In this document: positions 1,522 to 59,420 of the stretch, one piece after another
Position numbering within the stretch: the stretch's first letter is position 1
How the letters are laid out: each line of letters begins with the position of its first letter
Virus record (IMG/VR): IMGVR_UViG_3300005663_003096
DNA from: a virus
Taxonomy: Duplodnaviria > Heunggongvirae > Uroviricota > Caudoviricetes
Strand: one strand, 5' to 3'
DNA: 64,000 nucleotides
Notes under the pieces: model-generated
What the model was told of the DNA's origin: nothing
Seen by the model: only the letters and a program-made list of their open reading frames with translations
The model's database searches: none
Translations under genes and position numbers: made by a program

Positions 1522-2376
1522 TCAGGCGGACCGTTTCATATGCTTGTACTTCCGATCAAAGCTCGCGAGCTTGGGCAGGTCCATGGCGGCCGGCGAGGCG
1601 CGCATCTTGCCATGATCCAGGAACAGGCTGACAGCGCGATCACGATCGATGATCTTCATCGATTTATCGTCCTGACGTGGGCCCCACCCCACCCGCAGGA
1701 GATAGTTCAACATGCCATCGGGATCGACGCCGTCATCGCGGTAGCCCAGAAGACTTGCCGCGGCGTCTCGCTTGGACATCTTTTTGCCGTCCATCGTGAT
1801 CAAGCCGACATGGGCGAAGTCCGGCATCGCGGCTCCGAGGGCCGTGTAGAGCCCAGCATGGCGGAAGGTATTGGTCAGATGATCCATGCCGCGGATAACG
1901 AGGTTCACACCAAGATCGATGTCATCGACCACGGAGGCGAAATGATAGACCGGCATGCCATCGGCTTTGATTAGCACCTGATCATGCGCCAGATCATGCG
2001 CCTTGGCGCTGGGCAGCTGGTCGCCGGAAATCAGATCATGCCAAGGGGCTGCCGCCCCACCCTTCATCAGTACAGCACCATTATCGGCACGGACCGCCAG
2101 CCCTGCATCTAGAAGCTTTGCAGCCGCGGCGTCATAGATGTCGCGCCGGTGCGACTGGCGGTAGACGGCATCGGGTGCAAGGCCCAGCCAATCGAGACAG
2201 TCGTGGATCACGTCGATCGAGGCGTGGTTGTTGCGCGCAAGATCCGTGTCATCGATGCGCAAGATGAAGCGACCGCCACTGGCGCGCGCTGCGAGCCAGT
2301 TGAAATATGCGGTGCGGGCGGTGCCGATGTGAAAGTCGCCGGTTGGAGATGGGGCGACGCGGGTCGTATAGGTCAT
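1522..2376 (-). CDS. gluQ: glutamyl-tRNA synthetase catalytic-domain paralog (GluQRS/YadB-like; no anticodon-binding domain), ~285 aa
   Basis: Protein from MTYTTRVAPSPTGDFHIGTARTAYFNWLAARASGGRFILRIDDTDLARN with HIGH-type motif (HIGT) and KMSKR. It aligns along the GluRS catalytic core (…VVDDIDLGVNLVIRGMDHLTNT…GKKMSKR…LLGYRDDG…NYLLRVGW) but stops after ~285 aa, as in GluQ-RS. Start set at the ATG at 2376, which has an AAGGA Shine-Dalgarno upstream; the track ORF start at 2538 is upstream read-through. Confidence 0.65.
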   Translation of the reverse strand: MTYTTRVAPSPTGDFHIGTARTAYFNWLAARASGGRFILRIDDTDLARNNHASIDVIHDCLDWLGLAPDAVYRQSHRRDIYDAAAAKLLDAGLAVRADNGAVLMKGGAAAPWHDLISGDQLPSAKAHDLAHDQVLIKADGMPVYHFASVVDDIDLGVNLVIRGMDHLTNTFRHAGLYTALGAAMPDFAHVGLITMDGKKMSKRDAAASLLGYRDDGVDPDGMLNYLLRVGWGPRQDDKSMKIIDRDRAVSLFLDHGKMRASPAAMDLPKLASFDRKYKHMKRSA

Positions 2377-2389
2377 TGCGAAAATCCTT

Positions 2390-2740
2390 TCAGACGCCAA
2401 TTCGATGTGCGTGAGCCTGCAGGTCTTCCGGGTCCGCGATGCGCGAGACGCAGAATGCCATTGGCTCATTGAGAGAAGCCGCAACCAGATCAGGAAACTC
2501 GGCTTTGAGGGTTCGGTATGAAGCCAGGGCTTCTTCATCGAAATACGATCCTATGTGGACCGATGTGGGTAGATAATCTCCGGATGTAGGATCAAAGAGG
2601 CGCTGTGCATCTTGATCTGATCTCTGGCGTGTCTGAAGAACCTTGCTGCGCATCCATGCAGCTGCTTCGCCCCGATCGGGGAAGCGGGGCAGCTCCGGAT
2701 CTGGGGAACGTCGTTTGAAACGGCTCAGCATGGACAGCAT
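2390..2740 (-). CDS. hypothetical protein (~116 aa) between the tRNA genes and the GluRS paralog
   Basis: Sub-ORF of track ORF 2390..2851 starting at MLSMLSRFKRR, just downstream of tRNA-like gene 1. Same strand as, and immediately upstream of, the GluRS paralog. Confidence 0.35.
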   Translation of the reverse strand: MLSMLSRFKRRSPDPELPRFPDRGEAAAWMRSKVLQTRQRSDQDAQRLFDPTSGDYLPTSVHIGSYFDEEALASYRTLKAEFPDLVAASLNEPMAFCVSRIADPEDLQAHAHRIGV

Positions 2741-2756: not shown

Positions 2757-2832
2757 TGGCATCCGCAGCGAGGATCGAACTCGCGTCTTCGGGGTGAGGT
2801 CCCGGTATTCTGACCAATTGAACTATGCGGAC
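2757..2832 (-). tRNA. tRNA-like gene, probably tRNA-Glu(CUC), atypical anticodon arm (C33, 27:43 mismatch); possible pseudo-tRNA
   Basis: Reverse complement GTCCGCATAGTTCAATTGGTCAGAATACCGGGACCTCACCCCGAAGACGCGAGTTCGATCCTCGCTGCGGATGCCA folds as a cloverleaf. It has a 7-bp acceptor stem (G1:U72), D-arm GTTC/GAAT, T-arm GCGAG-TTCGATC-CTCGC, discriminator G and an encoded CCA. The anticodon loop ACCTCAC carries C33. Confidence 0.45.
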
Positions 2833-2845
2833 GTGGTTGTGATTT

Positions 2846-2921
2846 TGGCATCTCCTACGAGTCTCGAACTCGTTTCTGCTGCTTGAAAGGCGGCTGTTCT
2901 AACCGGGTGAACTAAGGAGAC
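2846..2921 (-). tRNA. tRNA-Glu(UUC)-like gene, one C·A mismatch in the anticodon stem
   Basis: Reverse complement GTCTCCTTAGTTCACCCGGTTAGAACAGCCGCCTTTCAAGCAGCAGAAACGAGTTCGAGACTCGTAGGAGATGCCA folds as a cloverleaf. It has a 7-bp acceptor stem, D-arm GTTC/GAAC, a canonical anticodon loop CTTTCAA (U33, anticodon TTC, A37), a perfect T-arm ACGAG/CTCGT, discriminator G and an encoded CCA. It lies 13 nt from tRNA-like gene 1. Confidence 0.55.
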
Positions 2922-5486: not shown

Positions 5487-6764
5487 TCAAGGACAGGGCT
5501 CCTCCACTCCCAGGGCTTTTCGCAGTGTGATCTCAACATTCTCACGGCAGGGCCCTTCTGATTTGAGCTTGAGATCATGCCCGCAAAGACCTCCGATAAC
5601 CTCGGCGAGGTTCTCAGTGTCAATCTCTGAAACAAAGGGCCCCTCTCCCATATCCATCACCGAGATCTCGATCTTATCGCCCAGCTGATCGAGGCAGGTG
5701 ACCCCCAGGCCATGATCAATGCCTACGCCCTGCCCTGTGCTGCGCGCGAGATCGGCCGAGATGATGCGGTCCAGCTCTCGGAGGTCCAGAGGTGCATAAC
5801 GGATGGCGTCCTGCCATTCGTTTGGCCTGTTGGTGCGGTCGATCACCTCAGTACCGGGCAAGGGCGTCGTTCCGCGGTCGAGCGGGAACGGCCCTGCCCC
5901 GTGTCGCGTTGCATAGGCCCGGGTCATATAGATGATCTCGAGATCGGTGATCTCGGCGTCTCGAGCGATGTCCACCATATTCTTGGCGCCAGTATGCGAC
6001 CGCGTCACGTGAGGGAATTCTCCGAGGTCCATATCGAGTTGCAACCCTTGGGCGCCCTCAAAGACAATGGCATCGCGATCGCCCAGGGCGCTATCCGACA
6101 TGATCGAGACATACTGCGTAAAGTGGCGCAGATCGTCATAAAATCGCTCAACGACTTCTGGGGCGTTGCCGAGAACAGGCTTTAAATGGTCTGGGATGCT
6201 ATCGAGACCAAGGGCTGCCAGGCGCTGCGGCACCCAAGAACTCGAAATCTCGTCGAGAAATCGTGCGAGGTCAGGCCGCCAAAGGTCATTCATGCAAAGC
6301 ATTGGCCCCTGCTCCTGCCGTTCCAAGGTCTCACCAAAGCCGAGACCACAAGATCCGTGCTTATCACCGCCGCGGAAAATCTCAGCTGCCTGATTGATGG
6401 CCATGTCCCAGGGTGTTGTCACCGCTGTGCGCGGATCGGCCGTGATCTGAATATCCTTTACGCCTTTGCGCGCGAGATCCTCGATCTCAGCAAAGAAGAC
6501 AATCGGATGAGATACAAAGAAGCGGGACAGATGGGTGGCGGCGCCTCGGAAGGATCCGGACCCGATGTGATGGAAGACATGGTGGCGGCCGTCAGCCATG
6601 GTGACGCCGTGGCCCGCCTGTGCGCCGCCATTGGAACGCACGACAGTGACCTGGCGCCCCTGCCCCTCAAGCTGCGCCGTGAGCGCATCTGTGGCCAGCC
6701 CCTTGCCTTCATCACCCCAGCCGGCGCCGATGATCCCACAGGCTTTGCGGATGTCATTTCCCAT
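5487..6764 (-). CDS. adenylosuccinate synthetase (PurA) family protein, divergent paralog
   Basis: Matches PurA signatures: GAGWGDEGKG (P-loop-like GDEGKGK), GGAQAGHGV, FEGAQGLQLDMDLGEFPHVTRSHT, RAYATRHGAGPFP and GVGIDHGLGV. It is 425 aa, clearly divergent from housekeeping PurA. Confidence 0.7.
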   Translation of the reverse strand: MGNDIRKACGIIGAGWGDEGKGLATDALTAQLEGQGRQVTVVRSNGGAQAGHGVTMADGRHHVFHHIGSGSFRGAATHLSRFFVSHPIVFFAEIEDLARKGVKDIQITADPRTAVTTPWDMAINQAAEIFRGGDKHGSCGLGFGETLERQEQGPMLCMNDLWRPDLARFLDEISSSWVPQRLAALGLDSIPDHLKPVLGNAPEVVERFYDDLRHFTQYVSIMSDSALGDRDAIVFEGAQGLQLDMDLGEFPHVTRSHTGAKNMVDIARDAEITDLEIIYMTRAYATRHGAGPFPLDRGTTPLPGTEVIDRTNRPNEWQDAIRYAPLDLRELDRIISADLARSTGQGVGIDHGLGVTCLDQLGDKIEISVMDMGEGPFVSEIDTENLAEVIGGLCGHDLKLKSEGPCRENVEITLRKALGVEEPCP

Positions 6765-17437: not shown

Positions 17438-17905
17438 TTGGGCGACGATGTATATCGTGGGTTTGCCCACGACCTGAAGACCACCATCCCGGCACCGAGT
17501 TCTGCTCAGGTCGAAGGGCATATTGGTGACGATCTTCGTCTCTATTCCATTCTCAGAACAGATATCACCATGTCGCAAGGCAAGGCGAATGCCCAATGTG
17601 GTCACGCCTATGTCGCAGCTGCGATCGGTGCTTTGGGCACGCCTGAAGGCGATGCCTATGCCCGTCTGATCCCTGGAACCAAGATCTGCCTCGATGGCGG
17701 ATCGCTTCAGAAGATGCAGCTCCTGATCGAGCAGCTCTCCCTGCAGGGCATTCCCTGCTTTCCCATCATCGACCGCGACCATGTGGAGCTGCCTGACTTT
17801 GATGGCTCTCCGATCCTGACGGCCATTGGCCTCGGGCCCTTCACGCGTGCCGATACCCCCCGCGCCCTGCGCAAACTCAAGCTTTTCAAAGGACTTCAAG
17901 CATGA
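17438..17905 (+). CDS. peptidyl-tRNA hydrolase, PTH2 (archaeal/eukaryotic) family
   Basis: LYSILRTDITMSQGKANAQCGHAYVAAA matches the PTH2 signature (R.DL.MGKGK.AAQ..HA). The downstream part aligns with the rest of the Pth2 fold (…GIPCFPIIDRDHVELPDFDGSPILTAIGLGP…). The N-terminal boundary is uncertain. Confidence 0.7.
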   Translation: MGDDVYRGFAHDLKTTIPAPSSAQVEGHIGDDLRLYSILRTDITMSQGKANAQCGHAYVAAAIGALGTPEGDAYARLIPGTKICLDGGSLQKMQLLIEQLSLQGIPCFPIIDRDHVELPDFDGSPILTAIGLGPFTRADTPRALRKLKLFKGLQA

Positions 17906-20956: not shown

Positions 20957-21880
20957 TTAGTCTGGCTCGTGATCGTCGAGATTCAACTCGAACTTCACCG
21001 GTTCAGCAAAGGGGTTCTTGGGTCTGGGAAGTACCTCAGCTTTGCCGTTGGTGCGCATCATGACGGCGTCGTCGATGTCCGGGGCAGGCTCTGAGAGGTC
21101 AACGGTCACAGGCTCTCCCCGCCGGGGGAGATTGCGGCCCATCGACTGCTGGATGTCGTTTTCTGAGACTGGCTCGTACTTGGTGCGGTCTTTCTTGGCC
21201 GCGTAAGCTGGGAGTTCCTTTTCATAGAGCGCAGGACCTTGTGGTCTGCGGGGCACGCGGCCCAAGTCCTGTAGCGGTGCGCGCTCCCCAGAGTGAGACA
21301 GCTGACGGCGAGACCTGAACATTGGGGCCTCATTCATAGGAAGGGGCTCGACACCTTTTACAGTCTTTCCAACCTGACCCTGCGCTTTCAGCGCGTGATA
21401 CTTGTCGAAATCATGGGCCTCACCAAGCACGACCACATCCACCGGCTTCTGCCCTTTGCGGTGGAGGCGGCCTCTCGACTGCTCGATCTCAATCTCAGGC
21501 ATCGGATGCATGCGTCGGTCGCCATGTCCCGCCAGGCGCTTGCTGAGCTCTTCAGGGTCCATTTCCCGAACCGCTTTGATCATCTCTTCTTGGTGCGGGC
21601 GAAGTTTCACCATTCCCAGCTTGCTCCGATCGCGGGCTTCGGCCTGAAGCCTCGCTTTTGTGCCCTGCTCGCAGTTCCCTGTGAATTCGATGGTGGCACC
21701 CTCAGGCAGGCTGAAGCCCATGTTGAACTTGTGCATGGAGGCGACAGCCGTGCCGCCGTCCCGAATATGCGCGAGCATATCTTTGATGTCCTGGGGCCGG
21801 GCGAAACCGCGGGCTTCGCGGCGCGAGGCCTCAAGCATCATTTCTTGATCATCTGCTGTAAATACGAGTTTGCCGGACAT
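20957..21880 (-). CDS. hypothetical protein
   Basis: ORF of 307 aa. The upstream divergent region carries the TTGCGAAAA motif. Confidence 0.4.
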   Translation of the reverse strand: MSGKLVFTADDQEMMLEASRREARGFARPQDIKDMLAHIRDGGTAVASMHKFNMGFSLPEGATIEFTGNCEQGTKARLQAEARDRSKLGMVKLRPHQEEMIKAVREMDPEELSKRLAGHGDRRMHPMPEIEIEQSRGRLHRKGQKPVDVVVLGEAHDFDKYHALKAQGQVGKTVKGVEPLPMNEAPMFRSRRQLSHSGERAPLQDLGRVPRRPQGPALYEKELPAYAAKKDRTKYEPVSENDIQQSMGRNLPRRGEPVTVDLSEPAPDIDDAVMMRTNGKAEVLPRPKNPFAEPVKFELNLDDHEPD

Positions 21881-22020
21881 GGTATCGGAACTCCATAGGT
21901 TTGGATTCTGCTGTTCCCTATATGATACTGTTCAATTGCGAAAATTGATATTGATCTTCTAATACCTTCCTCTTTTCGGGCTTCAAGCATAGATTGAGGA
22001 CAACATCAGAGGAGAAGTTC

Positions 22021-22983
22021 ATGTCCGGAAAACTGACCGCGGAAGAGGCGTCAAGGCGTCTATTGGGTCTGGCGCGCGGGATTGCGCATCAGGCCGAGAC
22101 CGAGCCGGGTCTCACCCGATCCCAGCGGTGCGAGAAGACAGCCTACGGGCTGCTGGCCTTGCTCGACGGTAAGACGCCTAAATTCCCGCGCTGCATGCTT
22201 GCGCCGCAACAGCATGAGGAAGACATCGCGGAAGCAAAGGCCGAGGGCATGCCTTGGTACAATGAAGACATCTTCTGCAGCCCCGGCCTCTCCGACCACT
22301 TTCTGTCGCGTCTGAAGGACCCGTCCTGGCTGCCGGAGCGAACCGATGCTGCGCCCTACACCGCTGATGAAATTCGCGATCAGATCGTGCGTTCCTTCAT
22401 GGGTAGTGCTGAATATTGGGCAAAGAACAACAAAACGGATGAGTTGAAAAATTGTGATGGTGTGGCCTTCAGCTGCTTTGGCGCGCTCGACGGTGTCAGT
22501 TTGAGCGGGCAGATGATGTCGATCATTCTCGATGCTGAAGACATTGCGCAGCGCCATGAGCTTCGTGAATTCCAGCCCGAGGTTCTGCAGCCCTACCTGC
22601 ACGAACTCTATCACAGCACCGACCCCATCGAGATTGAGATCCCCACGCCCGGCGCGCTGAACCTCTATTCTGTGAGCGTCCCCAATTCCATGGAGAGCAG
22701 CGATTGGTATGTGGTAGCGCGAGACGCAACTCATGCCGCTGAAATCTATACTCAAGGTGTCATTGACGAAAAAATCTCTGTAGATGCATGGGAGATGGAC
22801 GGCGCGCGCTCTCTGACTGTCCAATGGGTCGGCAAGAACGCCACAGGCGAACCGCGTTGGATTGATTGGGGGTCTACGAATACGATCACGATGCGTCTTA
22901 CCCCCTATGAGGTGGATCTCGTCGCCCTTGCGGACCTCGCGAACTGGAATGACTTCCAAAAGGAACAGGGCCTCGAGCCATGA
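22021..22983 (+). CDS. hypothetical protein
   Basis: Start at the ATG with Shine-Dalgarno AGAGGAGAAGTTC-ATG (MSGKLTAEEASRR…). Confidence 0.45.
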   Translation: MSGKLTAEEASRRLLGLARGIAHQAETEPGLTRSQRCEKTAYGLLALLDGKTPKFPRCMLAPQQHEEDIAEAKAEGMPWYNEDIFCSPGLSDHFLSRLKDPSWLPERTDAAPYTADEIRDQIVRSFMGSAEYWAKNNKTDELKNCDGVAFSCFGALDGVSLSGQMMSIILDAEDIAQRHELREFQPEVLQPYLHELYHSTDPIEIEIPTPGALNLYSVSVPNSMESSDWYVVARDATHAAEIYTQGVIDEKISVDAWEMDGARSLTVQWVGKNATGEPRWIDWGSTNTITMRLTPYEVDLVALADLANWNDFQKEQGLEP

Positions 22984-23582
22984 GCTCAGCTCCGATCGAG
23001 ATCATCGCGCATAAATCCTCGGGTTACGGCCCGCGGACCTATGCCAACGCCCATGAGGGTGATCTGACGATCGCTGTGGCCGCCAACTACAAGACCGGCG
23101 GGGAGCGTCTGACCCATAAGGCCGCCGGGGACAAGTTCCTCGCCCTGCCCTTGGCGATGGATGCAATCGAGGCCGCGCGGCTCCTCTACCGCACGCTGCG
23201 GGATCGGGACCTAAAGAACCCGGTCATCAATGTCGCGGGCAATGGCATGCAGACGATGAGCCGCAATGGCTTCACCCAGGAGTTCGTGAATATCCGGCTG
23301 CTGGAGATCTTGAGCCCGGTCCATAAGCACTGGCCGATCGCCAAGGTGATCTCCGGCGGCCAGACCGGCGCCGATATGGCCGGCGGCATTGCGGCGCATG
23401 CATTGGGTATTCCGGTGAAACTGCATTTCCCCGCCGGGTTCAAGCAGCGCTATGCTGATGGGGTGGATCAAACCTTCTCCAAGGAAGATATCCTTCAGCA
23501 GGTGAAGGATGGTGTGGCTGCGCTGAAGCAGGAAGCTCAGAAGAGGCGTGACCAAGATCAGGAAGATGCGCCCGCGCCGTGA
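22980..23582 (+). CDS. SLOG/DprA-LOG-like Rossmann-fold protein
   Basis: VISGGQTGADMAGGIAAHALGIPV resembles the DprA/LOG/YpsA (SLOG superfamily) glycine-rich nucleotide-binding loop; ATGA overlap with the upstream gene. Confidence 0.4.
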   Translation: MSSAPIEIIAHKSSGYGPRTYANAHEGDLTIAVAANYKTGGERLTHKAAGDKFLALPLAMDAIEAARLLYRTLRDRDLKNPVINVAGNGMQTMSRNGFTQEFVNIRLLEILSPVHKHWPIAKVISGGQTGADMAGGIAAHALGIPVKLHFPAGFKQRYADGVDQTFSKEDILQQVKDGVAALKQEAQKRRDQDQEDAPAP

Positions 23583-23636
23583 TTAAAACGCTTAAACTGA
23601 GTAGCGATATAACTTTTGAAACTTACGGACGAATTT

Positions 23637-25340
23637 ATGCTGAAATCGAAAGATGCGTGGCAAGAATATTTCAATGAAGTCAGCTTCCCCCTAAGGGATG
23701 TGAGCAAACATGTCAGCACAGCGGTGTTTGCAGTGTACGATGGAGTGTGCATTTTTTGTAAAGAGCGAAAGGCTGAACACGTAGACCACATCGTTCCGCA
23801 CTCCCTGGGTGGGCCTGATAGATCCGATAATTTCGCTGCATCCTGCACGCGGTGTAATTTGCGAAAACACGATAAATTACTGCCTCTACCGGTTCTCGGA
23901 ATCGCGCTCCTGGAGGCGCGCAGGAAAGCTGAAGATGTAGAGCAAATGATTGCGGAGCTCGAAAATGGGGTTCAATCGACATACAAAGCATATCGATCTA
24001 AAGGGGAACGTGCCGTTCTATTGCACGAAAGCTATATTCTTCATAGATGTGAAGACGGGGGGGGCGTGAGGCCTGTCGCTCGGATCTATTACAAGAATGA
24101 TCCTCGATCTCGGCTAGGTCATCACCATCAGAATGGCGATTTCCCGGATATTCGCTTCTCATACGGCCGCAAATTTCTGAAGTCCAAGATGGCTCACGCC
24201 CTTTCTCCGGGGCTCCCTCTGGAGCCCGAAGAATACAAGAACCCTGAGGACTTCGAGACGCTAAACCTGCTTAGGGATATGGAGCCCGACCATTGGGGGC
24301 GAAGTATCGTGGACTACGCGGTACACCTAACCACCAATCGACATCCCAAGATGAGCGACTACCTCCTCTTCAACGAGACACGGTTCCGCCCTGGAGGTCT
24401 ATTCCTCGCCAAGACGCCCGGAGGTGAGGGAATTGGATACGATATCAGCTTGGCTGATCGTGAGGTGACATTCGATGACGCAGTCCGCTTTCAGACATTC
24501 ATGGATGCACAGGAAGATTTCTGGGCGGAACTTCCCGCTGAACTTCATCATTGCCTTCCAGCCGCTGCTGCTTTGGGGGGCGCTCAGCCGAAGATATGCA
24601 TCGACTGGATGGATGAGCTATGGGTGCTAAAATTGCCAAACGAGCGTCACGTTATCAACATGGCCGCGGCCGAGGCGGGCTGTCTTGACCTTTGCGAAAT
24701 GGCAGGCATTGCCGTACCTGATCGAGAGGTAAGATCCTTTGGACCCCGCTCGAGTGTGTTATTGGTCAAGCGCTTTGACAGAGTTTCCGCGCCTGGAGGC
24801 CGCATTCGCCGCCATATGATATCCTCACTCACACTGCTTGAGCGTCATGAGATGGACCGAGGGGTATCTGGTTATGCTGATATCTACCTAGCACTTCGGG
24901 CTTCCGGAGCGCCCAGTGTCGTCGGTGAGGATCTTTACCGTCGAATGCTGATGAATGTTCTTTGCGGCAATACCGACGATCATTATAGGAACCACGCTTT
25001 TTTCCAGAAAGATGACGGATCATTCACACCAACGCCCGTTTACGATGTCACTCCGACTATTCAAGTATCCCCATCTCGCAGGTTGTTCCTGCATCTCGGG
25101 AGGGCCGGGTGTGGCCGGGATGCGACAGTTGAAAATGCAGTGTCAGCGGCAAGCTCTCTGGATGTCGAACGAGATAGGGCCATTGAGATTGCCAATGAGC
25201 TTAGCTTGATGGTCGCTAGAAGCTGGAAAGATGCGATGAGACGGCATGGCGCGAGTGATGTCTGTATCGAAAGGATGGCGACGAGCTTCTCTGAGGCTGG
25301 CAATACAATCGCCTGCAATGACCCGGGTTTGAACATGTGA
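23637..25340 (+). CDS. HNH endonuclease domain fused to a HipA-like Ser/Thr kinase
   Basis: N-terminal CIFCKERKAEHVDHIVPHSLGGPDRSDNFAASCTRCNLRKHDK is a canonical HNH. The C-terminal part carries the HipA catalytic motifs GAQPKICIDW and CGNTDDHYRNHAFF. Local GC is lower than the flanks. The track ORF starts at TTG 23616; the first ATG is at 23637. Confidence 0.65.
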   Translation: MLKSKDAWQEYFNEVSFPLRDVSKHVSTAVFAVYDGVCIFCKERKAEHVDHIVPHSLGGPDRSDNFAASCTRCNLRKHDKLLPLPVLGIALLEARRKAEDVEQMIAELENGVQSTYKAYRSKGERAVLLHESYILHRCEDGGGVRPVARIYYKNDPRSRLGHHHQNGDFPDIRFSYGRKFLKSKMAHALSPGLPLEPEEYKNPEDFETLNLLRDMEPDHWGRSIVDYAVHLTTNRHPKMSDYLLFNETRFRPGGLFLAKTPGGEGIGYDISLADREVTFDDAVRFQTFMDAQEDFWAELPAELHHCLPAAAALGGAQPKICIDWMDELWVLKLPNERHVINMAAAEAGCLDLCEMAGIAVPDREVRSFGPRSSVLLVKRFDRVSAPGGRIRRHMISSLTLLERHEMDRGVSGYADIYLALRASGAPSVVGEDLYRRMLMNVLCGNTDDHYRNHAFFQKDDGSFTPTPVYDVTPTIQVSPSRRLFLHLGRAGCGRDATVENAVSAASSLDVERDRAIEIANELSLMVARSWKDAMRRHGASDVCIERMATSFSEAGNTIACNDPGLNM

Positions 25341-25350
25341 GCACGATTTA

Positions 25351-26475
25351 TCAGTCCTCGATGAGATTATCTTCCCTCGGGTCATCCCGGTCTGAAGGCT
25401 GGTCGGCCGCGCGGTTTTGCCGGGCTTGTAGAAGCTCATCATAGGTCTGTACCGGAGAATACTCCAAACAGTTCGTGGCCTTGTTGATCCCCGTCGGTAA
25501 GATCTTTCCGCGTTGTTTGAAGCAGACCATGGGCTGACGTGTTGAATTGCTGATGGCGCCGTAGCGACACTGCAAACAGGTCCGGGCGTTGACCCCACCC
25601 TCGTAATGCGCGGCTTTTAAAAAGGCATCGATCCGCTCGACGGGTCTGAGGCCCCGCAGCTTATCCGTGACCACCTCCCAATGTACGATGCTGCTGCGCG
25701 CGAGGATTTTCTTGAACCGCTGGCGGCTCTGGGAGGTCATCTGCACCTTGCCGCTGCGGTAGATGATGAAGACCGTCTCCTCCTTTGGGCAAGCGGAGCA
25801 CCGGTCGACAAAGCGTTCGGACAGCGGAGACAGATTGAAGCCGCGGCCGCGGTCGCTGTCGATCGTGATCCCGGTCCTGAGCCGAGCGATGTCCTTCTCC
25901 GAAGAGACCTTCGTTTCCAGTATGGGTAGGCCGCTGGCCAGCTTCTCCGGCGCGCAGGGGTGAGAGACTTCGATCTCGATGAGCAAGCGTGCGCCCTCTC
26001 CTCCTTTCGTCAGCAGCACATCTGCGATGAACCCCCCGACGCCGACCTCTTCTGCAGCGGTGTCCAGCCACTGCGTCAGGTCAAAGACCTCTGGTGCTTC
26101 GGGCTTGCTACAGCCATCCGGGAAGAGATCTGCGGCCGACATGCACCGAACCTTGCGGTTGCGGGTGAGCTTGTATTGCCTTCCCTCCCGGCACGCCGCG
26201 GTAAAACCTGCCACCACAGCCATCTTGGCGGCGCGGTGCAGATAGGTCTCATGCGAACAGTCGATTTCAGCATCGGAGGTATGTCGGAAGTGGTGAACGC
26301 GGATCTTGCCGAGCACGGGCAGCATGCCATTGCCGCAGCCCAGACAGGTATAGGGTCCGCGGGCGTTGCGATCCTCAGCCCTCAGTTCTTTGACGTCGAC
26401 CAGATCGCCATGCGTATTGGTACAGAACCGCGCCTTCATTTGTGCTGAGGCCTCCCCTGCCCTTGCCAAAACCAT
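25351..26475 (-). CDS. CoiA-like family nuclease (competence protein CoiA-like)
   Basis: YTCLGCGNGMLPVLGKIRVHHFRHTSD matches the CoiA N-terminal Zn-finger/HFAH-type motif. LIEIEVSH is a PD-(D/E)xK-like E-x-E/S motif. 374 aa, typical CoiA size. Confidence 0.55.
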   Translation of the reverse strand: MVLARAGEASAQMKARFCTNTHGDLVDVKELRAEDRNARGPYTCLGCGNGMLPVLGKIRVHHFRHTSDAEIDCSHETYLHRAAKMAVVAGFTAACREGRQYKLTRNRKVRCMSAADLFPDGCSKPEAPEVFDLTQWLDTAAEEVGVGGFIADVLLTKGGEGARLLIEIEVSHPCAPEKLASGLPILETKVSSEKDIARLRTGITIDSDRGRGFNLSPLSERFVDRCSACPKEETVFIIYRSGKVQMTSQSRQRFKKILARSSIVHWEVVTDKLRGLRPVERIDAFLKAAHYEGGVNARTCLQCRYGAISNSTRQPMVCFKQRGKILPTGINKATNCLEYSPVQTYDELLQARQNRAADQPSDRDDPREDNLIED

Positions 26476-26523
26476 GGCAGATTACCAATCTGGCGGCAAA
26501 TGCAACGGGATGGGAACTAAAGA

Positions 26524-27438
26524 ATGGTTGGTGACGCGGACCTGAATCGAGAGGCACCCTTCGATAACAATATCACCGACGCGCTGGGCCTATATGTCTA
26601 TGCCCTCTTCGATCCGCGAGACGGCTCCCCTTTCTATGTGGGCAAAGGTGGCGGCCGGCACGGCAACGATCGCGTTCTGCACCATTTCTTCGAAGCCAGG
26701 GAAGACATGAAGCGTGAATCTGGTCCCAATGACAAGGAACGCGCCAAGCTCAAAAGGATTCAAGAAATATGGGGCGCCGGTCTCGAGGTTGAATGGAAGA
26801 TCATGCGCCGCAAACTGCGGGATGAGGCGGAAGCACTGAATGTAGAAGCCGCCTTGATGGATGCATTCGCCGCCTGTGGCCACATCCTCACCAACATCCA
26901 AGGCGGCCACAGGAGTGGCCATCAAGGGCTGATTGCGGGGAGTGCGCTAAGGGAATTCGCAGCACCTCCAATCACCGGACAAGATTTCCCGGCCGAGCTG
27001 CGCAACCGACCGATCTTTATCTTCAACATCGGCACCAAGGTCAGCAGGATGTGGAAGAAGATCGACCGGATCAAAAACCCTAAAGAAAGACCTGACTACG
27101 TCAAAGCAACACAATGTTGCTGGAAACTGGGGCCCTATTGGCCAAATCAGCGTGATGCCATCGCCATGGGGGTCGTGGCGGGCATCAGCCGCTCCGCAAT
27201 AGGCATTGCTGATTGGACGCCCTGTACAGATGACCCGGAGCGGTGGCAGATCACGCCGACGGAATTAGATCCTGAAATCCACCAAGTGGTGGTGAACAGA
27301 AAATTCAGCGCGCTTCTTGAGCCAGTCAAAGGGTATCTGCAGCTCGGCGGATTTACCGTCATAGAAATCTCAGACGAGGGCGAATGTACTTTCCTTCGTG
27401 GTTCTAAATCGTCACAGAAGGCTGGTTCCAGCGGCTGA
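26524..27438 (+). CDS. GIY-YIG nuclease domain protein
   Basis: GLYVYALFDPRDGSPFYVGKGGGRHGNDRV contains the GIY…YIG-type pair (LYVY … FYVGKG), with a conserved Arg and downstream Glu/Asn. Confidence 0.55.
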   Translation: MVGDADLNREAPFDNNITDALGLYVYALFDPRDGSPFYVGKGGGRHGNDRVLHHFFEAREDMKRESGPNDKERAKLKRIQEIWGAGLEVEWKIMRRKLRDEAEALNVEAALMDAFAACGHILTNIQGGHRSGHQGLIAGSALREFAAPPITGQDFPAELRNRPIFIFNIGTKVSRMWKKIDRIKNPKERPDYVKATQCCWKLGPYWPNQRDAIAMGVVAGISRSAIGIADWTPCTDDPERWQITPTELDPEIHQVVVNRKFSALLEPVKGYLQLGGFTVIEISDEGECTFLRGSKSSQKAGSSG

Positions 27439-27565
27439 AATTGACGGATCAGGAATACCTGCACAACAGGATATCTGAACCGAGACACCATCCGCGTCAG
27501 TGGGTTTGCGAAAAACCGCGCAGTAATAGTATTTCACAAACCCAAAATTATGTGTCTTTATCGCT

Positions 27566-28755: not shown

Positions 28756-29892
28756 TCAGGCAGAGAAGCGCGCGCGCGACGCTGACAGGGCGTCCACGAG
28801 CCCTTCATGGACCTGTCCCGCCTCGCAGTCCTCTCCCAAGCTCACGAGCTCTGAGAGCGCCGCAGAGCGCCCAGGACGACCCTCTAAGCCAAAGGCGCGG
28901 CGCACGTCCGCCAAAGTCTCCATGGTGAGCACATGGGCGCGCTTGCGGCCTTCTTCGAGGATATGGTCTACCAACTCGATATCAGCTGCGGCTTCGGCGC
29001 GCCGCGCCCGCATGGGCGCCAGCATCTCTTGCAAGATCCCGTCCAGACGCCGCTTCAATACCATGTCGCCGAGCCCACCGGCGCGGTACTGATCCTTGAG
29101 GTCCGCTACAGCACCGCTGTCTGGATCAAAAGCATCGAGCATGGCAAAGACCACATTGCCCTCGACCTTGCCGGGGTCCGAGACCTTCAGATGGCCTGGA
29201 TCGGTGAACATGCGCATGACAGCCGCGCGGATCTCTTCCGGGCTGTCGCGCAGCGCGATGGCATTGCCGGCGGATTTGGACATCTTGCCTGCCCCGTCGA
29301 TGCCCGGCAGCCGCGGCGCGTTGCTCTGCATCAAGGTTGGAGAGACCAGGACCTTGCGCCCAGCCATGCGGTTCACCTTCCCCGTGATCTCACCGGTGAT
29401 CTCGACAAGCGGCGCTTGGTCGGCGCCTGCGGGCACGATGTCTGCGCCAAAGGCGGTGATGTCGGCCGCCTGGCTGACCGGGTAGCAAAGAAAGCCCGCC
29501 GGGGTGCCATCGCCGAAGCCGCGCTGGGTGATCTCTTCACGGATCGTGGGAATGCGCATCAGACGCGGCACGGTGACCAGGTTCATATAGAGCATGGTCA
29601 GCTCGTTGAGTGCGGGCAGATCGGACTGGCGCACGATGGTCACCCGCTCAGGGTCGATGCCGGCCGCGATGTAATCAAGCACCACCTCGCGCACATTGGC
29701 CGCCACATCTGCGGCGCGCCCGGCGTTGTCCGTCAGCGCCTGCATGTCGGCGACCAGGATGGTCACGTCGTTCTTGTCCTGCAGGGCGACGCGCGCCTGA
29801 AGGGTCCCGGCGAGATGGCCGAGATGCAGCGCACCGGTGGGCCGGTCGCCGGTGAGGATGGTTCTGCCTTCGAGGGTAGAGAGATCTTGCAT
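28756..29892 (-). CDS. trpS: tryptophanyl-tRNA synthetase
   Basis: Class I motifs TGDRPTGALHLGH (HIGH-type) and KMSKS. TrpRS-specific segments LVADMQALTD (D-x-Q/H-A-x-T) and YPVSQAADITAFGADIVPAGADQ (compare E. coli YPVLMAADILLY…VPVGEDQ). Start at the ATG at 29892 (MQDLSTLEGRTILTG). Confidence 0.8.
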   Translation of the reverse strand: MQDLSTLEGRTILTGDRPTGALHLGHLAGTLQARVALQDKNDVTILVADMQALTDNAGRAADVAANVREVVLDYIAAGIDPERVTIVRQSDLPALNELTMLYMNLVTVPRLMRIPTIREEITQRGFGDGTPAGFLCYPVSQAADITAFGADIVPAGADQAPLVEITGEITGKVNRMAGRKVLVSPTLMQSNAPRLPGIDGAGKMSKSAGNAIALRDSPEEIRAAVMRMFTDPGHLKVSDPGKVEGNVVFAMLDAFDPDSGAVADLKDQYRAGGLGDMVLKRRLDGILQEMLAPMRARRAEAAADIELVDHILEEGRKRAHVLTMETLADVRRAFGLEGRPGRSAALSELVSLGEDCEAGQVHEGLVDALSASRARFSA

Positions 29893-30004
29893 GGTCTTGT
29901 CCTTTATGGAGAGAGGACAGCCGCATGATGGGAAGGGTCTTTCAGGACATCTCAAGCCGCATCACGCGGCCGATCCTGGGGTTGGTCACAGGAATTGGGC
30001 CGCC

Positions 30005-30055: not shown

Positions 30056-30165
30056 GGCGAGACCATAGAAAGCACGGCTCGAAAAGGCAATGCGAAAAGT
30101 GAGAAGTGATCCTTTCGAAAACGGATATGTTTAGCAAGATTCGAAGTAAGCCACGGGACCGGAAA

Positions 30166-30197
30166 CGAAAAACGCCCGGTGGATGTCCGCCGGGCGG
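30166..30197 (-). terminator. intrinsic terminator on the minus strand (CGCCCGGTGG-loop-CCGCCGGGCG followed by a U5 tract) after the membrane-protein gene
   Basis: Plus strand reads AAAAACGCCCGGTGGATGTCCGCCGGGCGG. Confidence 0.55.
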
Positions 30198-30229
30198 AGC
30201 TTTCTGAGCCAGCGCAGGGCTTCGATCGA

Positions 30230-30706
30230 TTACTGCGCGTCGTCGATCGCCTGGGCGTCGGGGGAGATAAACTCCACGGGCTCTTGCCCCTTCAATTCCA
30301 TGATGGCTGCAATGAGCGTCACGCCCGCGCCAATGAAATAGACCGGCATGCCAAGGCTCGCGAGTTCGAGAAGCTCTCCAACGCTGCCAATCGGAAGATT
30401 GGCGCCAGCGCTATTGGCGGCGGAGCTGATGCGGACCATGGCGATCAGGGCGATGACGAATGGAAGGGCCCCGGTCGCCACGGCAAGGCGCGGGTTCAGG
30501 CGACCTGTCGCTGCCATGGCGCATGTCAGTGCTGCGAGGGCAAAGCTGCCAATGAATACGAATGTCCCGAAAGACATCATGTCAGCGCCGGCTTTCAGCA
30601 GGTAGCTCGGGGAAAAGCTTCCCAGCCAGGTGCTAATCCATGGCAGAAAGAAGCTGAGGGCGGTGGCGGCCGAGCCGCCGATGATGACTTTGGTGTTCTT
30701 ATCCAT
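30230..30706 (-). CDS. multi-pass membrane protein
   Basis: Start at MDKNTKVIIGG. Several TM helices (ALSFFLPWISTWLG; GTFVFIGSFALAALTCAMAA; LPFVIALIAMV; VYFIGAGVTLIAAIM). Confidence 0.5.
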   Translation of the reverse strand: MDKNTKVIIGGSAATALSFFLPWISTWLGSFSPSYLLKAGADMMSFGTFVFIGSFALAALTCAMAATGRLNPRLAVATGALPFVIALIAMVRISSAANSAGANLPIGSVGELLELASLGMPVYFIGAGVTLIAAIMELKGQEPVEFISPDAQAIDDAQ

Positions 30707-38151: not shown

Positions 38152-39402
38152 ATGAATAAGAACAACCACAAAGACCTCGATATCCCTCAAGAACAAGGCA
38201 TGGATCCTCTGGACCACCGCGTGCTCGCGCGCCGCCTCGATCTCTATCACATCGAAGAAGATGCGCCGGGCATGATCTATTGGCACGCCGCCGGTTGGCA
38301 GATCTACCGCGAGCTCGAAGATTATATCCGCGGCCGCATGCGGGGCTTAGGTTATGGTGAGGTGCGCTCGCCGCAGCTGTTGCCCCAGTCCCTCTGGGAA
38401 GCCTCCGGTCACTGGGAGAAGTTCGGCGAGAACATGTTCGCCGTGCCGGCGCGCGAGGAAGGCGGCCGCGATATGGCCCTGAAGCCGATGAGCTGCCCGT
38501 GTCATTTGCAGATATTTAACTCGGATCTGCGCTCTTGGCGTGATCTGCCGATGCGCATTGCCGAGTTCGGCCAGTGCCACCGCGATGAGGCTTCGGGCTC
38601 GATGCATGGGCTCATGCGCACCAAGGCTTTCGAGCAGGACGATGCTCATGTGATCTGCGATCCCGGTCAGGTACGCGGCGAGGTTGCGCGTTTCGTTGAG
38701 CTGCTGAAGGAAGTCTATGCCGCTCTGGGCTTTGCTGATTTCGAGGTGGCGCTGTCGCTGCGCCCCGAAAAGCGCGCCGGCAATGATGCGGATTGGGATC
38801 ACGCGGAGCAGGAACTGCTGGGAGCGGCCCTCTCCTGCGGGCTCGACCCGAAGCTGCAGCTCGGCGAAGGTGCCTTCTACGGGCCCAAGCTGGAGTTCGC
38901 GCTGCGCGACAAGAAAGGCCGCTCCTGGCAGTGCGGCACCATCCAGCTCGATATGGTCCTGCCAGGCCGACTGGGCGCATCCTATGTTGGCAAGGACGGT
39001 GCCAAACATGAGCCGGTGATGCTGCACCACGCTGTGTTGGGGTCCTTGGGACGCTTCATTGGTATTCTGCTGGAGCATTGCGAAGGCCGCCTGCCCCTCT
39101 GGCTGGCGCCGGTACAGGTGGCGGTCCTGCCCATTGGGGATGATCAGCGCGACGCTGCTGTGGATGTCATGGACCAGCTGCGCGCCGCGGGGCTGCGCCC
39201 TGCCCTTTTTGATCAATCCGAAGGGCTCGGCCGCCGGATCGTCATGGTCCGCGATCAGTTGATCCCGGTTCAGATCGTGATTGGGAAACTGGAGGTGGAG
39301 CGTGGCGAAGTGATGCTGCAGATCGGCGGGGGCAAAGAGGCGCTGTCGCCAGCCGCGGCCATTGCGCGGATGGGTGAGCTTGTCGGGGTGCCGAAGGGGT
39401 GA
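38152..39402 (+). CDS. threonyl-tRNA synthetase paralog, catalytic plus anticodon-binding domains only (N-terminal TGS/editing domains absent)
   Basis: Aligns with E. coli ThrRS from about residue 225 onward: LDLYHIEEDAPGMIYWHAAGWQIYRELE…KPMSCPCHLQIFNSDLRSWRDLPMRIAEFGQCHRDEASGSMHGLMRTKAFEQDDAHV…QCGTIQLDMVLPGRLGASYVG. 416 aa versus ~640 for full-length ThrRS. Confidence 0.75.
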   Translation: MNKNNHKDLDIPQEQGMDPLDHRVLARRLDLYHIEEDAPGMIYWHAAGWQIYRELEDYIRGRMRGLGYGEVRSPQLLPQSLWEASGHWEKFGENMFAVPAREEGGRDMALKPMSCPCHLQIFNSDLRSWRDLPMRIAEFGQCHRDEASGSMHGLMRTKAFEQDDAHVICDPGQVRGEVARFVELLKEVYAALGFADFEVALSLRPEKRAGNDADWDHAEQELLGAALSCGLDPKLQLGEGAFYGPKLEFALRDKKGRSWQCGTIQLDMVLPGRLGASYVGKDGAKHEPVMLHHAVLGSLGRFIGILLEHCEGRLPLWLAPVQVAVLPIGDDQRDAAVDVMDQLRAAGLRPALFDQSEGLGRRIVMVRDQLIPVQIVIGKLEVERGEVMLQIGGGKEALSPAAAIARMGELVGVPKG

Positions 39403-39609: not shown

Positions 39610-40563
39610 ATGCTTATTTCCGCAACGGCGATCTATGTCGCCATCTTCACCGTCGTGTTTCTTCTGATGGCCTCATCGACCGTGGTTATCACGCAGCAAC
39701 AACACGTTAAGATCATCTCGACCTTCGGCAGGTTCTCCTCCGTGAGAAAATCCGGCTTGTCGTTCAAAGCACCTTGGCCGTTCCAGGCGGCGTCGGAAAA
39801 CTTCTCCCTGAAAATCCGCGAGATTTCCGAGGATGTGAACGTGAAATCCTCGGACAATGCCTTCGTGCTGGTGCCGATCCGGGTTCAATTCTGCGTCGAC
39901 GAAAACACGGCCCAGGACGCCTTCTACAAGCTGAACAACCCTGAGGGCCAGATCCGGTCCTACGTCGTCAACCAGGTGCGCTCCACGGCCTCAAGCCTGT
40001 CGTTCAATCAGCTCTTTCAGGCGCGGGATACCTTCGAAGATGGTGTCGAAGGCACTCTGACTGAAAAGATGTCCGGTTTTGGCTTCCGGATCGAGAACGT
40101 GCTCGTCGATGATCCACAGCCCTCGGAGGACCTCCGCCAGGCATTCGACCGCGTCATCGCATCTGAGCGCCTGAAAGAAGCGGCGATCAATGAAGGTGAA
40201 GCTGCGAAAACCCTTTCGATTGCCAAATCGAAAGCAGAAGGTGAGGCGATGAACATCAAGGCCGAGGCCTATGCGTCCTTCCGTAAAAAGGTGGCCGAAG
40301 GCAACGCAGAAGCGCTGCAGGCCTTTGTGGGCAGCACCGGTCTTTCGGCCAGCGCCGGCCTCGACTTCTTTACCTCGATCAATGAGATGGAAGCCCTGCG
40401 CGACGCAGCATCTGCAGGTGGCAGTGTGGTCTTCGTGACAGCGGCCGCCAAAGAGACAAAGGACGCCTCTACCATGGGTATGATTGCCGCAGGACAGCAA
40501 GAGTCTGCTCCAGCTAAAAAAAGGATGCCCCGAAAGTCTGTTTCATCTCTGCAAAAGCCTTGA
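39610..40563 (+). CDS. SPFH/Band-7 (stomatin/prohibitin-like) family protein
   Basis: N-terminal TM, then VVITQQQHVKIISTFGRFSSVRKSGLSFKAPWPF, typical of the start of the SPFH domain. Ala/Glu-rich coiled C-terminus. Confidence 0.6.
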   Translation: MLISATAIYVAIFTVVFLLMASSTVVITQQQHVKIISTFGRFSSVRKSGLSFKAPWPFQAASENFSLKIREISEDVNVKSSDNAFVLVPIRVQFCVDENTAQDAFYKLNNPEGQIRSYVVNQVRSTASSLSFNQLFQARDTFEDGVEGTLTEKMSGFGFRIENVLVDDPQPSEDLRQAFDRVIASERLKEAAINEGEAAKTLSIAKSKAEGEAMNIKAEAYASFRKKVAEGNAEALQAFVGSTGLSASAGLDFFTSINEMEALRDAASAGGSVVFVTAAAKETKDASTMGMIAAGQQESAPAKKRMPRKSVSSLQKP

Positions 40564-54649: not shown

Positions 54650-54792
54650 GCGGCCTTCGAATTAACGGTGGGGCCGAACGGCGCCGCCTGCTCCCCTCTG
54701 TATGTCTGCTGACCAACGAACCTGTGGATTAAGGTTTGTATCCCCATTCTCCTGGCATAGCTGCGAAAAAGAAGCTGTGGCAGGAGTCCTCG

Positions 54793-55668
54793 ATGACATT
54801 AGAGTGGAATAGGCGCGCATCGGAGATCGATGCCTCGGTAAACTTCATTGCGAAAACGAAAGACGGTGGCGCACTTGAGGCCCGTTTCGTTCAGCGCAGG
54901 TCCGAGTATTTTATCGCCTATCTCTCCTCCCAAACCGGCTGCAACCAATCCTGCAGGTTCTGCCACCTCACCCAGCTCCGGGAAGTATCAATGGGCCAGG
55001 CCCGTATCGCAGACTATCACGCGCAGTTTGCACAGGTCCTTGACCATTACGACAGCCTCAAAGCGCCGGTTGAGCGGATGAACGTCAATATGATGGCCCG
55101 CGGTGAGCCCTTGCTGAACCCGAACTTTTGCAATGAGTTCGACCGGTTCATCGCGCCGATTCGCGCGGCCGCAGAGCAACGCGGCATCAACTACCGCGTC
55201 AATGTCTCATCGATCTTCCCGGTGGGGGCGCGTGAGGTGGATCTGATTAAATCCTTTGCCGGCCATCCGGTGACATTCTACTGGTCGCTCTACTCCCTGC
55301 GGCAGAGCTTCCGCAGGCGCTGGTTGCCGAAGGCAGATGCCCCGGCCACCACCCTGCCCCGTCTGCGCGCCTGGCAAGAGGCCACCGGACGCGACGTGGT
55401 CATTCACCACGCGCTGATCTCGGGCGAGAACGATCGTCTTTGCGATCATATCGCTTTGCGGAACTTCCTCAGGAATTCTTCCTTGAAGACGCGATTAAAT
55501 CTCGTTCGCTACAACAGCTTCGGGCCGCGGACCGGGCGCGAAGCGAGTGATGCCGCCTATGCGCAGGCACTGGAGGTCCTGGGAGAAGATATGCCCCTCT
55601 CAGGCTCGAAGATCGTCCCGCGCGTCGGCCGCGACGTTGCAGCCTCTTGTGGGATGTTTCTGACCTAA
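54793..55668 (+). CDS. radical SAM protein, RlmN/Cfr-like (compact)
   Basis: CNQSCRFC (CxxxCxxC). MMARGEPLLN resembles the RlmN GMGEPL motif. C-terminal …RVGRDVAASCGMF ends with the conserved Cys. TGCGAAAAAG motif upstream of this start, within the longer track ORF. Confidence 0.5.
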   Translation: MTLEWNRRASEIDASVNFIAKTKDGGALEARFVQRRSEYFIAYLSSQTGCNQSCRFCHLTQLREVSMGQARIADYHAQFAQVLDHYDSLKAPVERMNVNMMARGEPLLNPNFCNEFDRFIAPIRAAAEQRGINYRVNVSSIFPVGAREVDLIKSFAGHPVTFYWSLYSLRQSFRRRWLPKADAPATTLPRLRAWQEATGRDVVIHHALISGENDRLCDHIALRNFLRNSSLKTRLNLVRYNSFGPRTGREASDAAYAQALEVLGEDMPLSGSKIVPRVGRDVAASCGMFLT

Positions 55669-56807: not shown

Positions 56808-56942
56808 GAATGAAGCCTCCTATTGGAATATTGCGTCTGATGTTCTTTGCCGAACACATGCCGTTGCGAAAAAGGAACTCATATAAAACGCTTACGTTCC
56901 TCATTTCCGTCTTTTTTGTTGCATCTTTATTATTCGCACCAC

Positions 56943-59326: not shown

Positions 59327-59420
59327 GAAATCTCCTTTTTAGAAACGTGAATACCTAAAATGGGTATCTGAACCGATTTTCGCAACAGGCCTCGCAGGGA
59401 ATACTTTCCACACATCAACG

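Follow-up and report, generated by a model that had tools for sequence, protein, structure and literature searches.

IMG/VR record IMGVR_UViG_3300005663_003096, a stretch of 64,000 nucleotides (64 kb) referred to here as the window, carries at positions 23637 to 25340 an open reading frame (ORF) in which an HNH nuclease module precedes a complete HipA-type kinase. From its sequence, the window is assigned to a family of plasmid-like elements of Rhodobacterales, 0.3-0.64 Mb in size and rich in translation genes, the lifestyle of which is unsettled. The fusion gene is made up of the following parts, all on the plus strand.

23637..25340, plus strand: HNH-HipA fusion ORF, 567 aa (ORF call; Pfam HNH and HipA_C)
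23637..24017, plus strand: HNH module, residues 1-127 (Pfam; alignment to Cas9d/IscB-type HNH domains)
23748-23879, plus strand: HNH core, residues 38-81 (Pfam HNH/HNH_5)
24018..25337, plus strand: complete HipA kinase, residues 128-567 (alignment with 14 relatives)
24576-24593, plus strand: Gly-rich loop GGAQPK, G314-K319 (clade alignment)
24966-24995, plus strand: catalytic motif GNTDDHYRNH, G444-H453 (clade alignment)
25044-25046, plus strand: Mg-binding D470 (clade alignment)

The ORF begins with an ATG at 23637 and ends with a stop codon at 25338-25340, and a TTG at 23616 is an alternative start. The frame is uninterrupted between the two modules, with no stop codon and no frameshift, and codons 82-127 are stop-free. 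An earlier reading of the window made from the sequence alone (the sequence-only reading) had described an HNH endonuclease fused to a HipA-like kinase, and this description holds, as a single 567-aa ORF includes both Pfam domains above their cut-offs with the motifs intact. The gene was also found in GCA_043557255.1 (Sulfitobacter sp. 1A13353, 426-kb contig) and in two read-archive assemblies. The four sequenced copies differ at a single nucleotide, in codon 92, which makes a selection analysis of the fusion impossible.

Within residues 38-81, the Pfam scores are 38.3 bits for HNH (PF01844; cut-off 21.4) and 38.4 bits for HNH_5 (PF14279; cut-off 27.5). The core contains two CxxC pairs, C38/C41 and C70/C73, together with D50-H51, N65 and N74, and each zinc or active-site residue aligns with its counterpart in Cas9d/IscB-type HNH domains of solved structure. 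Weak PtuB-like similarity extends across residues 32-127 (E 1e-5 to 3e-3), and the gene was not assigned to a Septu system because none of its neighbours matched PtuA. The module thus shares the small CCCC-zinc HNH (H-N-N) core sequence type with free-standing phage HNH endonucleases and with Septu PtuB, but differs from both in being covalently joined to a kinase and in having no PtuA partner. A long helix is predicted at residues 84-121 with low confidence. The best phage matches are annotated as HNH endonucleases, and small HNH genes such as this one are typically homing endonuclease genes of phages. A word-index search with the HNH module alone returned nothing usable, and no paralogue of it was found in the window or in any fetched locus.

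The kinase half is recognised by HipA_C (PF07804) over residues 312-530 with 129.4 bits (cut-off 30.5). In an alignment with 14 relatives, Met1 of the homologues falls at residue 128 of the fusion and the sequences are colinear over ∼440 residues, indicating that the HNH module is joined head-to-tail with a complete long HipA. An N-subdomain-1 lies ahead of the core kinase, as in long HipA proteins and unlike the short HipT/HipG-type kinases. Residues G314-K319, K332, T446-D447-D448-H449-Y450-R451-N452 and D470 are invariant across the clade alignment, and the catalytic and Mg-binding segments align with those of the E. coli (GATDGHAKN, YDI) and Shewanella HipA structures. With the NCBIfam YjjJ model the protein reaches 31.4 bits (cut-off 401), which places the kinase outside the HipH/YjjJ family.

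The fusion kinase is the most divergent member of its clade, with a mean identity of 43% compared with 47-64% for the other members. It differs from the consensus at 27 of 104 strongly conserved clade positions, mainly in residues 135-280, and has an 11-residue His-rich insertion near residues 156-166. Where most relatives have GSDLGGARPK, the fusion has AAALGGAQPK, so it no longer has the Ser/Asp pair that comes ahead of the Gly-rich loop. No regulatory autophosphorylation Ser/Thr was found beside this loop, though the Ser is variable in the clade and the significance of its loss is uncertain. In a neighbour-joining tree the fusion kinase is at the base of the clade beside P0054, its closest relative (about 47-48% identity). 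P0054 is itself the third gene of a hipB-hipA-hipA' order (L023, 1377-4379), where it follows a different classical HipA and lacks a HipB of its own. An intact 440-codon frame with all catalytic motifs at 47% identity argues for continued selection on the kinase, and divergence with these motifs kept fits a constraint that was altered rather than lost. The changes in the N-terminal subdomain would fit the loss of a HipB partner.

The G+C content at third codon positions (GC3) is 0.48 and 0.55 in the two halves of the fusion and 0.62-0.77 in the adjacent genes. Low values in both halves suggest that the fusion gene has a separate origin as one unit. The spacer preceding the gene is 54 nt long. 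A scan of 21800-26600 for sigma-70 promoters and terminators revealed no promoter, including in this spacer, and the terminator part was uninformative.

HipB, the variable slot and other Hip systems

No HipB gene adjoins the fusion, which therefore lacks the gene adjacency of a type II hipBA module. In contrast, a HipB gene is present directly upstream of hipA in 11 of 11 clade relatives inspected (L004, L006, L008, L010, L011, L013, L014, L015, L016, L017, which is the same place as L012, and L018). In the relatives it encodes a conserved 112-165-aa helix-turn-helix (HTH) protein with a C-terminus ending in LDF immediately before the hipA start, and this shared ending suggests a conserved C-terminal contact with the kinase. 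Since all of the relatives examined keep HipB, they are considered ordinary toxin-antitoxin modules. The absence of an adjacent HipB-like antitoxin, as claimed in the sequence-only reading, was confirmed for the entire 64-kb window. A tblastn search with three HipB proteins found no match, and a profile hidden Markov model of seven HipB proteins run against the six-frame translation found no HipB (best E 0.54). Similarity searches with the relatives' HipB also revealed no remnant of it in the first 200 residues of the fusion.

The fusion gene is located in a slot of variable gene content between conserved backbone genes. The slot corresponds to 23583-27565 in the window and to 3337-7051 in L006, and the genes of the window that define or occupy it, besides the fusion, are as follows.

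22980..23582, plus strand: cpYpsA/SLOG-like backbone gene (Pfam), forming a conserved pair with 21994-22983, syntenic in L006
25351..26475, minus strand: CoiA-N-like putative nuclease, convergent, slot cargo (weak match, below the Pfam cut-off)
26524..27438, plus strand: GIY-YIG protein, slot cargo (LEM-3 GIY-YIG; PADLOC PD-T4-3, 1.2e-24)

On the left, the window and L006 share genes for a 307-aa protein, a 320-aa protein and cpYpsA (81% nucleotide identity), and on the right a gene for a 246-aa protein and the tryptophanyl-tRNA synthetase (TrpRS) gene (70-81% nucleotide identity). Between these flanks, L006 carries hipB-hipA, two small genes and a gene for an ApaLI-like restriction enzyme, and the window carries HNH-hipA and the CoiA-N-like and GIY-YIG genes, with hipA in the opposite orientation relative to the backbone. 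The slot is a variable site for conflict-type cargo.

The fusion is rare. Of 5.8 billion protein clusters searched by word index, 84 matched, and only one of these combined HNH with HipA_C. Its protein is 99.8% identical to that of the window, with one residue different. When 1.84 billion representatives were scanned exhaustively with HMMER, 5191 matched, and among the best 150 of these, residues 1-567 are covered only by the same protein. The remaining matches among the best 150 begin at query residue 149 or later, mostly at ∼160-175, and most of the full-length proteins among them start to match no more than ∼50 residues from their own N-terminus. If more distant Hip kinases are fused to HNH, such proteins could rank below the matches listed. 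Genome scans gave no loci with the single-protein query and nine loci with the alignment query, none of which covered the HNH part, and no nuclease fusions were seen among the longer HipA relatives (P0089, P0163, P0194, P0196 and others).

In the literature, no description was found of an HNH-HipA fusion, nor of a phage or giant-element HipA accompanied by synthetases. Gerdes et al. (2021) catalogued ten Hip gene organisations, and an HNH-HipA fusion is not among them (PMC8262856). The earlier statement that no such fusion had been described therefore stands for the 84 word-index matches, the best 150 of the 5191 HMMER matches and the ten-organisation catalogue.

Several known systems resemble the fusion in part. 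With canonical type II hipBA (E. coli K-12, Caulobacter crescentus HipBA1/2 and the Rhodobacterales clade) it shares the full-length HipA, the N-subdomain and all motifs, and its kinase is 42-48% identical to clade members encoded by ordinary hipBA operons of elements like this one. It differs from them in lacking a HipB gene, in the HNH module at the kinase N-terminus, in the loss of the Ser/Asp pair and in being the most divergent of its clade. HipH and HipL are precedents, each a monocistronic gene in which a Hip kinase is joined to a DNA-binding domain (PMC8262856). Like the fusion, HipH/YjjJ is monocistronic, has an N-terminal nucleic-acid-binding extension of ∼100-130 aa, proposed to act in cis (cis-antitoxin), and has no linked antitoxin gene. 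However, the extension of the fusion is an HNH nuclease fold and not an HTH, and its kinase is of the long HipA type. HipL (kinase - HipS-like - HIRAN, monocistronic) likewise combines a Hip kinase with a DNA-binding domain in one polypeptide, but domain order and identity differ, as the HIRAN domain is C-terminal and non-catalytic and the kinase of HipL is a short core kinase belonging to clade XI. A role in phage defence has been validated for HipA-like kinases that work with partners other than HipB (PMC13092281). The fusion resembles these anti-phage kinases (e.g. DS-6/HipAD) in having a HipA-family kinase without HipB and in its position among defence-like genes. DS-6/HipAD-type systems, in contrast, consist of two genes with a DUF3037/DUF1829 partner, whereas the fusion has no partner gene and a nuclease module in the same chain. 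If active, the fusion would represent an eleventh Hip organisation beside the ten catalogued, namely a long HipA minus HipB and plus a covalent nuclease module. It would also provide a test case for the restraint of a HipA toxin without an antitoxin gene, and for the gating of a translation-blocking kinase by a DNA-recognising domain.

Synthetase genes and a repeated motif

The window includes several genes for aminoacyl-tRNA synthetases and related functions, among them genes for a glutamyl-tRNA synthetase (GluRS)-like protein and a threonyl-tRNA synthetase (ThrRS).

1522..2538, minus strand: GluRS-like protein, catalytic domain only, 338 aa (closer to gltX than to GluQRS, below both cut-offs)
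2757-2921, minus strand: tRNA-Glu(CUC) and tRNA-Glu(UUC), adjoining the GluRS-like gene
17438-17905: PTH2
28756..29955, minus strand: TrpRS, auxiliary 'TrpRS II' type (KMSKS intact; family backbone gene)
38152..39402, plus strand: ThrRS, 416 aa, catalytic and anticodon-binding domains only (thrS model positions 169-540)

The sequence-only reading had pointed to extra GluRS and TrpRS copies in the window. Both are present, though not as a selective pair, as ThrRS, PTH2 and two tRNA-Glu are encoded as well. Public gene calls for TrpRS have a later start, with the gene ending at 29892 (378 aa). The best solved match of TrpRS is D. radiodurans TrpRS II (2A4M, 4e-111), compared with 8.5e-23 for 5V0I, which we take to be E. 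coli TrpRS, and the protein is ∼60% identical to 'tryptophan--tRNA ligase 2' proteins of unrelated bacteria. Conservation of TrpRS II extends across the element family, also to a Paracoccus plasmid where hipBA is not nearby. The ThrRS lacks the N-terminal TGS and editing region and is not known to be a Hip substrate.

Characterised Hip kinases phosphorylate GltX (Ser239), TrpS and, in Caulobacter (HipA1/2), LysS (PMC8262856). In the window, the KMSK-loop serine is present in both the GluRS-like protein (GKKMSKRD) and TrpRS (GKMSKS). The target serine of Hip kinases is located in this KMSKS-type loop, where a serine is almost universal, so its retention does not prove sensitivity. The genes hipA and TrpRS are within ∼1.0-3.4 kb of each other in the window, in L006 and in L008, and the hipBA of L004 is 1.1 kb from ThrRS. 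However, the three TrpRS adjacencies represent one syntenic backbone context and not independent events. No synthetase was found within 8-10 kb of hipBA in the element-borne L011, L013, L014, L015 and L016, nor within the same distance of the hipBA of chromosomal clade members.

An island motif had also been reported inside the fusion gene, at the HNH/HipA junction (23860-23872), with the suggestion of an internal promoter for a kinase-only product. The motif family is real. Its conserved unit is the 9-mer TTGCGAAAA, present in 23 copies on both strands of the window against 0.63 expected (36-fold). Intergenic DNA makes up 12% of the window by gene calls and holds twelve of the 23 copies, which are typically located 20-200 nt ahead of a gene, and ∼5 copies are clearly within genes. 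The 23 sites include 4769, 21936, 27506 and 31807 on the plus strand and at 59377-59385 on the minus strand. The motif was also found in related element loci and was not found in three chromosomal hipBA loci (L010, L012, L017). No second element occurs at a fixed distance downstream of it. The 9-mer is probably an element-specific promoter or regulator site. The position and context given for the copy in the fusion gene were incorrect, as the exact 13-mer, which occurs once in the window, is at 23858-23870, encodes N74-L75-R76-K77-H78 of the HNH core and lies 150 nt upstream of the junction (codon 128). The features relevant to separate products are shown below.

23859..23867, plus strand: in-gene copy of TTGCGAAAA, encoding L75-R76-K77 in the C-x-x-C-N-x-x-K part of the HNH core
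23946..23948, plus strand: M104, first in-frame ATG past the motif, a hypothetical start for a 464-aa kinase-only product, proposed from the sequence
24057..24064, plus strand: G8 homopolymer, codons 140-143, the sole run of at least 8 in the window

The G8 run is 12 codons past the HNH/HipA junction and is not statistically unusual for the base composition. A slip of +1 or -1 at this run would lead to an HNH-only product of 143 or 154 aa.

Candidate function and competing explanations

The explanation we favour, to which we give an even chance, is that the gene encodes a single-chain Hip kinase effector without HipB, fused to an HNH module and carried in a variable slot for conflict genes. 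The fusion would have been derived from hipBA modules, which appear as recurrent cargo of the giant Rhodobacterales elements, with the HNH module preceding the kinase where HipB is missing. We infer that the protein acts as a self-contained conflict or addiction effector. Its kinase would phosphorylate an aminoacyl-tRNA synthetase and cause translation arrest, as HipA, HipT and Caulobacter HipA1/2 do. The HNH module may supply the contact with DNA that the HTH of HipB gives canonical modules, in analogy with HipH/YjjJ, which has an HTH, and HipL, which has a HIRAN domain, and it could serve as a sensor of foreign or damaged DNA, as a cis-regulator of the kinase or as a second, DNA-cutting effector. 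The clean junction, the lack of a HipB remnant and the retention of motifs in both modules are consistent with this explanation.

Several points weigh against it. The activities of both domains are predictions from sequence. A trans-acting HipB or another antitoxin could be encoded beyond the 64 kb, by the host or by the rest of the ∼0.4 Mb element. The low GC3 of both halves also fits a recent import of the fusion gene, and the fusion is limited to one near-identical lineage, giving no comparative support for selection on the fused state. The HNH module has no detectable close homologues that would indicate its origin. The AlphaFold2 model of the fusion, built from a HipA-only alignment, is uninformative for the HNH part and for contacts between the domains (mean pLDDT, the predicted local distance difference test, 65; residues 1-88 below 40).

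The main rival in our ranking is an evolutionary accident, in which a mobile, free-standing HNH endonuclease gene inserted into hipB or took its place and ended up in frame with hipA. The chimera would then be recent and neutral or mildly deleterious, tolerated through poor expression or because the kinase is crippled outside the catalytic motifs. This is somewhat unlikely, but it accounts for the single lineage of near-identical copies, for the resemblance of the module to phage homing endonucleases, for the atypical GC3, for the 27 changed positions and lost Ser/Asp pair, and for the 54-nt spacer in which no sigma-70-like promoter was seen. What speaks for the HipB-less effector instead is the 440-codon open frame with all catalytic motifs, unexpected of long-neutral sequence, together with the HNH zinc and catalytic residues, which are all intact, and the junction, which coincides cleanly with Met1 of the homologues and leaves no trace of HipB. 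It is improbable that separate products are made instead of or besides the fusion, with a kinase-only protein expressed from a TTGCGAAAA promoter and M104 and an HNH-only protein by slippage at G8. The enrichment of the motif, half of the copies being upstream of genes, the in-frame ATG 78 nt downstream of it and the truncation expected from a slip would all allow this. However, the in-gene copy is not special among the gene-internal ones, the motif is followed by no second promoter element at a fixed distance, no clear Shine-Dalgarno sequence precedes M104, and the G8 run, itself ordinary for the base composition, is in frame in all four sequenced copies. This homopolymer close to the junction is also the one feature that might point to an assembly or annotation artefact merging two separate genes. 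Such an artefact is barely credible, as the same gene was recovered in three other assemblies that agree with the window, and the frame is continuous from the HNH core, with no stop in codons 82-127, through the 12 codons of HipA homology that precede the G run, and beyond.

The sequence-only reading had proposed that the GluRS and TrpRS paralogues are kinase-insensitive backups or immunity factors. In its full form, the kinase would attack the GluRS and/or TrpRS of the host, and immunity would come from the GluRS-like protein and TrpRS of the element in place of an antitoxin. We consider this highly improbable. It draws on the known targets of HipA, HipT and Caulobacter HipA1/2 (GltX, TrpS and LysS; PMC8262856), on the divergent auxiliary type of the element TrpRS, on the closeness of hipA to TrpRS or, in L004, to ThrRS, and on the absence of HipB from the fusion version. 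That reading had itself counted against the idea paralogues that carry the same phosphorylatable motif and give no protection, and the first half of this applies, with both proteins carrying the phosphorylatable KMSK serine. The adjacency is not conserved, since the TrpRS cases are a single syntenic context and the five other element-borne loci, like the chromosomal ones, have no synthetase nearby. With three synthetases in 64 kb, proximity of a few kb is expected by chance, and the one next to the L004 hipBA, ThrRS, is not a known Hip target. The synthetases, ThrRS among them, belong to the backbone of an element rich in translation genes, and TrpRS II is conserved across the family with or without hipBA nearby. 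HipB is retained by the relatives on such elements, so it is not the synthetases that neutralise the toxin there. A role as kinase-insensitive backups is not supported. A broader 'toxin plus bypass enzyme' strategy is equally doubtful. Here, Hip kinases of the elements would disable class I synthetases of the host, translation would be sustained for the element by its own divergent synthetases, a TrpRS of type II and a truncated GluRS served by dedicated tRNA-Glu genes, and HNH-HipA would be an antitoxin-free form in which the HNH module couples the kinase to DNA recognition or cleavage. The interplay of element synthetases with synthetase-targeting kinases is experimentally approachable in these poorly described 0.3-0.64 Mb marine Rhodobacterales elements.

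The surrounding element

Members of the element family occur in Sulfitobacter, Leisingera, Pseudosulfitobacter, Cereibacter, Roseivivax, Gemmobacter and Paracoccus sp. ME4, and carry genes for synthetases, tRNAs, PTH2, SmpB, SecY and RNase H among many unknown genes. Contigs of 0.3-0.5 Mb from Leisingera, Pseudosulfitobacter, Gemmobacter and a metagenome carry relatives of the kinase (42-48% identity), and further ones are on shorter Cereibacter and Roseivivax contigs. One is on a replicon deposited as the complete 535-kb 'plasmid unnamed1' of Paracoccus sp. ME4. Other window genes, or genes for synthetases, SmpB or SecY, are common to several of these contigs. Other members of the same HipA clade are in ordinary chromosomal settings.

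Near-identical DNA was not found in phage or plasmid collections (INPHARED, PLSDB and IMG/VR had no match). A tblastn search of phage and plasmid collections with the backbone protein encoded at 21994-22980 gave no match, and IMG/VR scans with the HipA alignment, TrpRS and this backbone protein found nothing. Together with the location of the relatives on large contigs and a plasmid, these results led us to describe the window as part of a giant plasmid-like element. No capsid, terminase, replication or partition genes were detected in the 64 kb at E≤1e-5.

The window shares 97.9% identity with the public Sulfitobacter sp. 1A13353 contig over 16.4 kb, with an indel after TrpRS, and is therefore considered to come from a sister strain. 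Three public copies (L001-L003) include a gene for a 613-aa protein just after TrpRS that is missing from the window (∼30100-30315). Mismatches between the copies are unevenly spread, with 0 in some blocks and 15-20% in others, a pattern that suggests mosaic recombination.

The window is dense in short genes without a Pfam match. Forty-four PHROG families were matched, together with an Acb1-like protein. Further genes with predicted products are as follows.

5487-6764, minus strand: adenylosuccinate-synthetase-like protein (127 bits against the PurA cut-off of 402; weak PurZ match; strong match to phrog_1211)
39610-40563: SPFH protein (Pfam census)
54736-55668: radical SAM protein (Pfam census)
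56847-57701: N6 DNA methylase (Pfam census)

The first of these may be a divergent PurA/PurZ-type enzyme. The Pfam census, which covered 79 predicted proteins, also identified the anti-CBASS Acb1-like protein, a NUDIX-NrtR-type regulator and an EF-hand protein.

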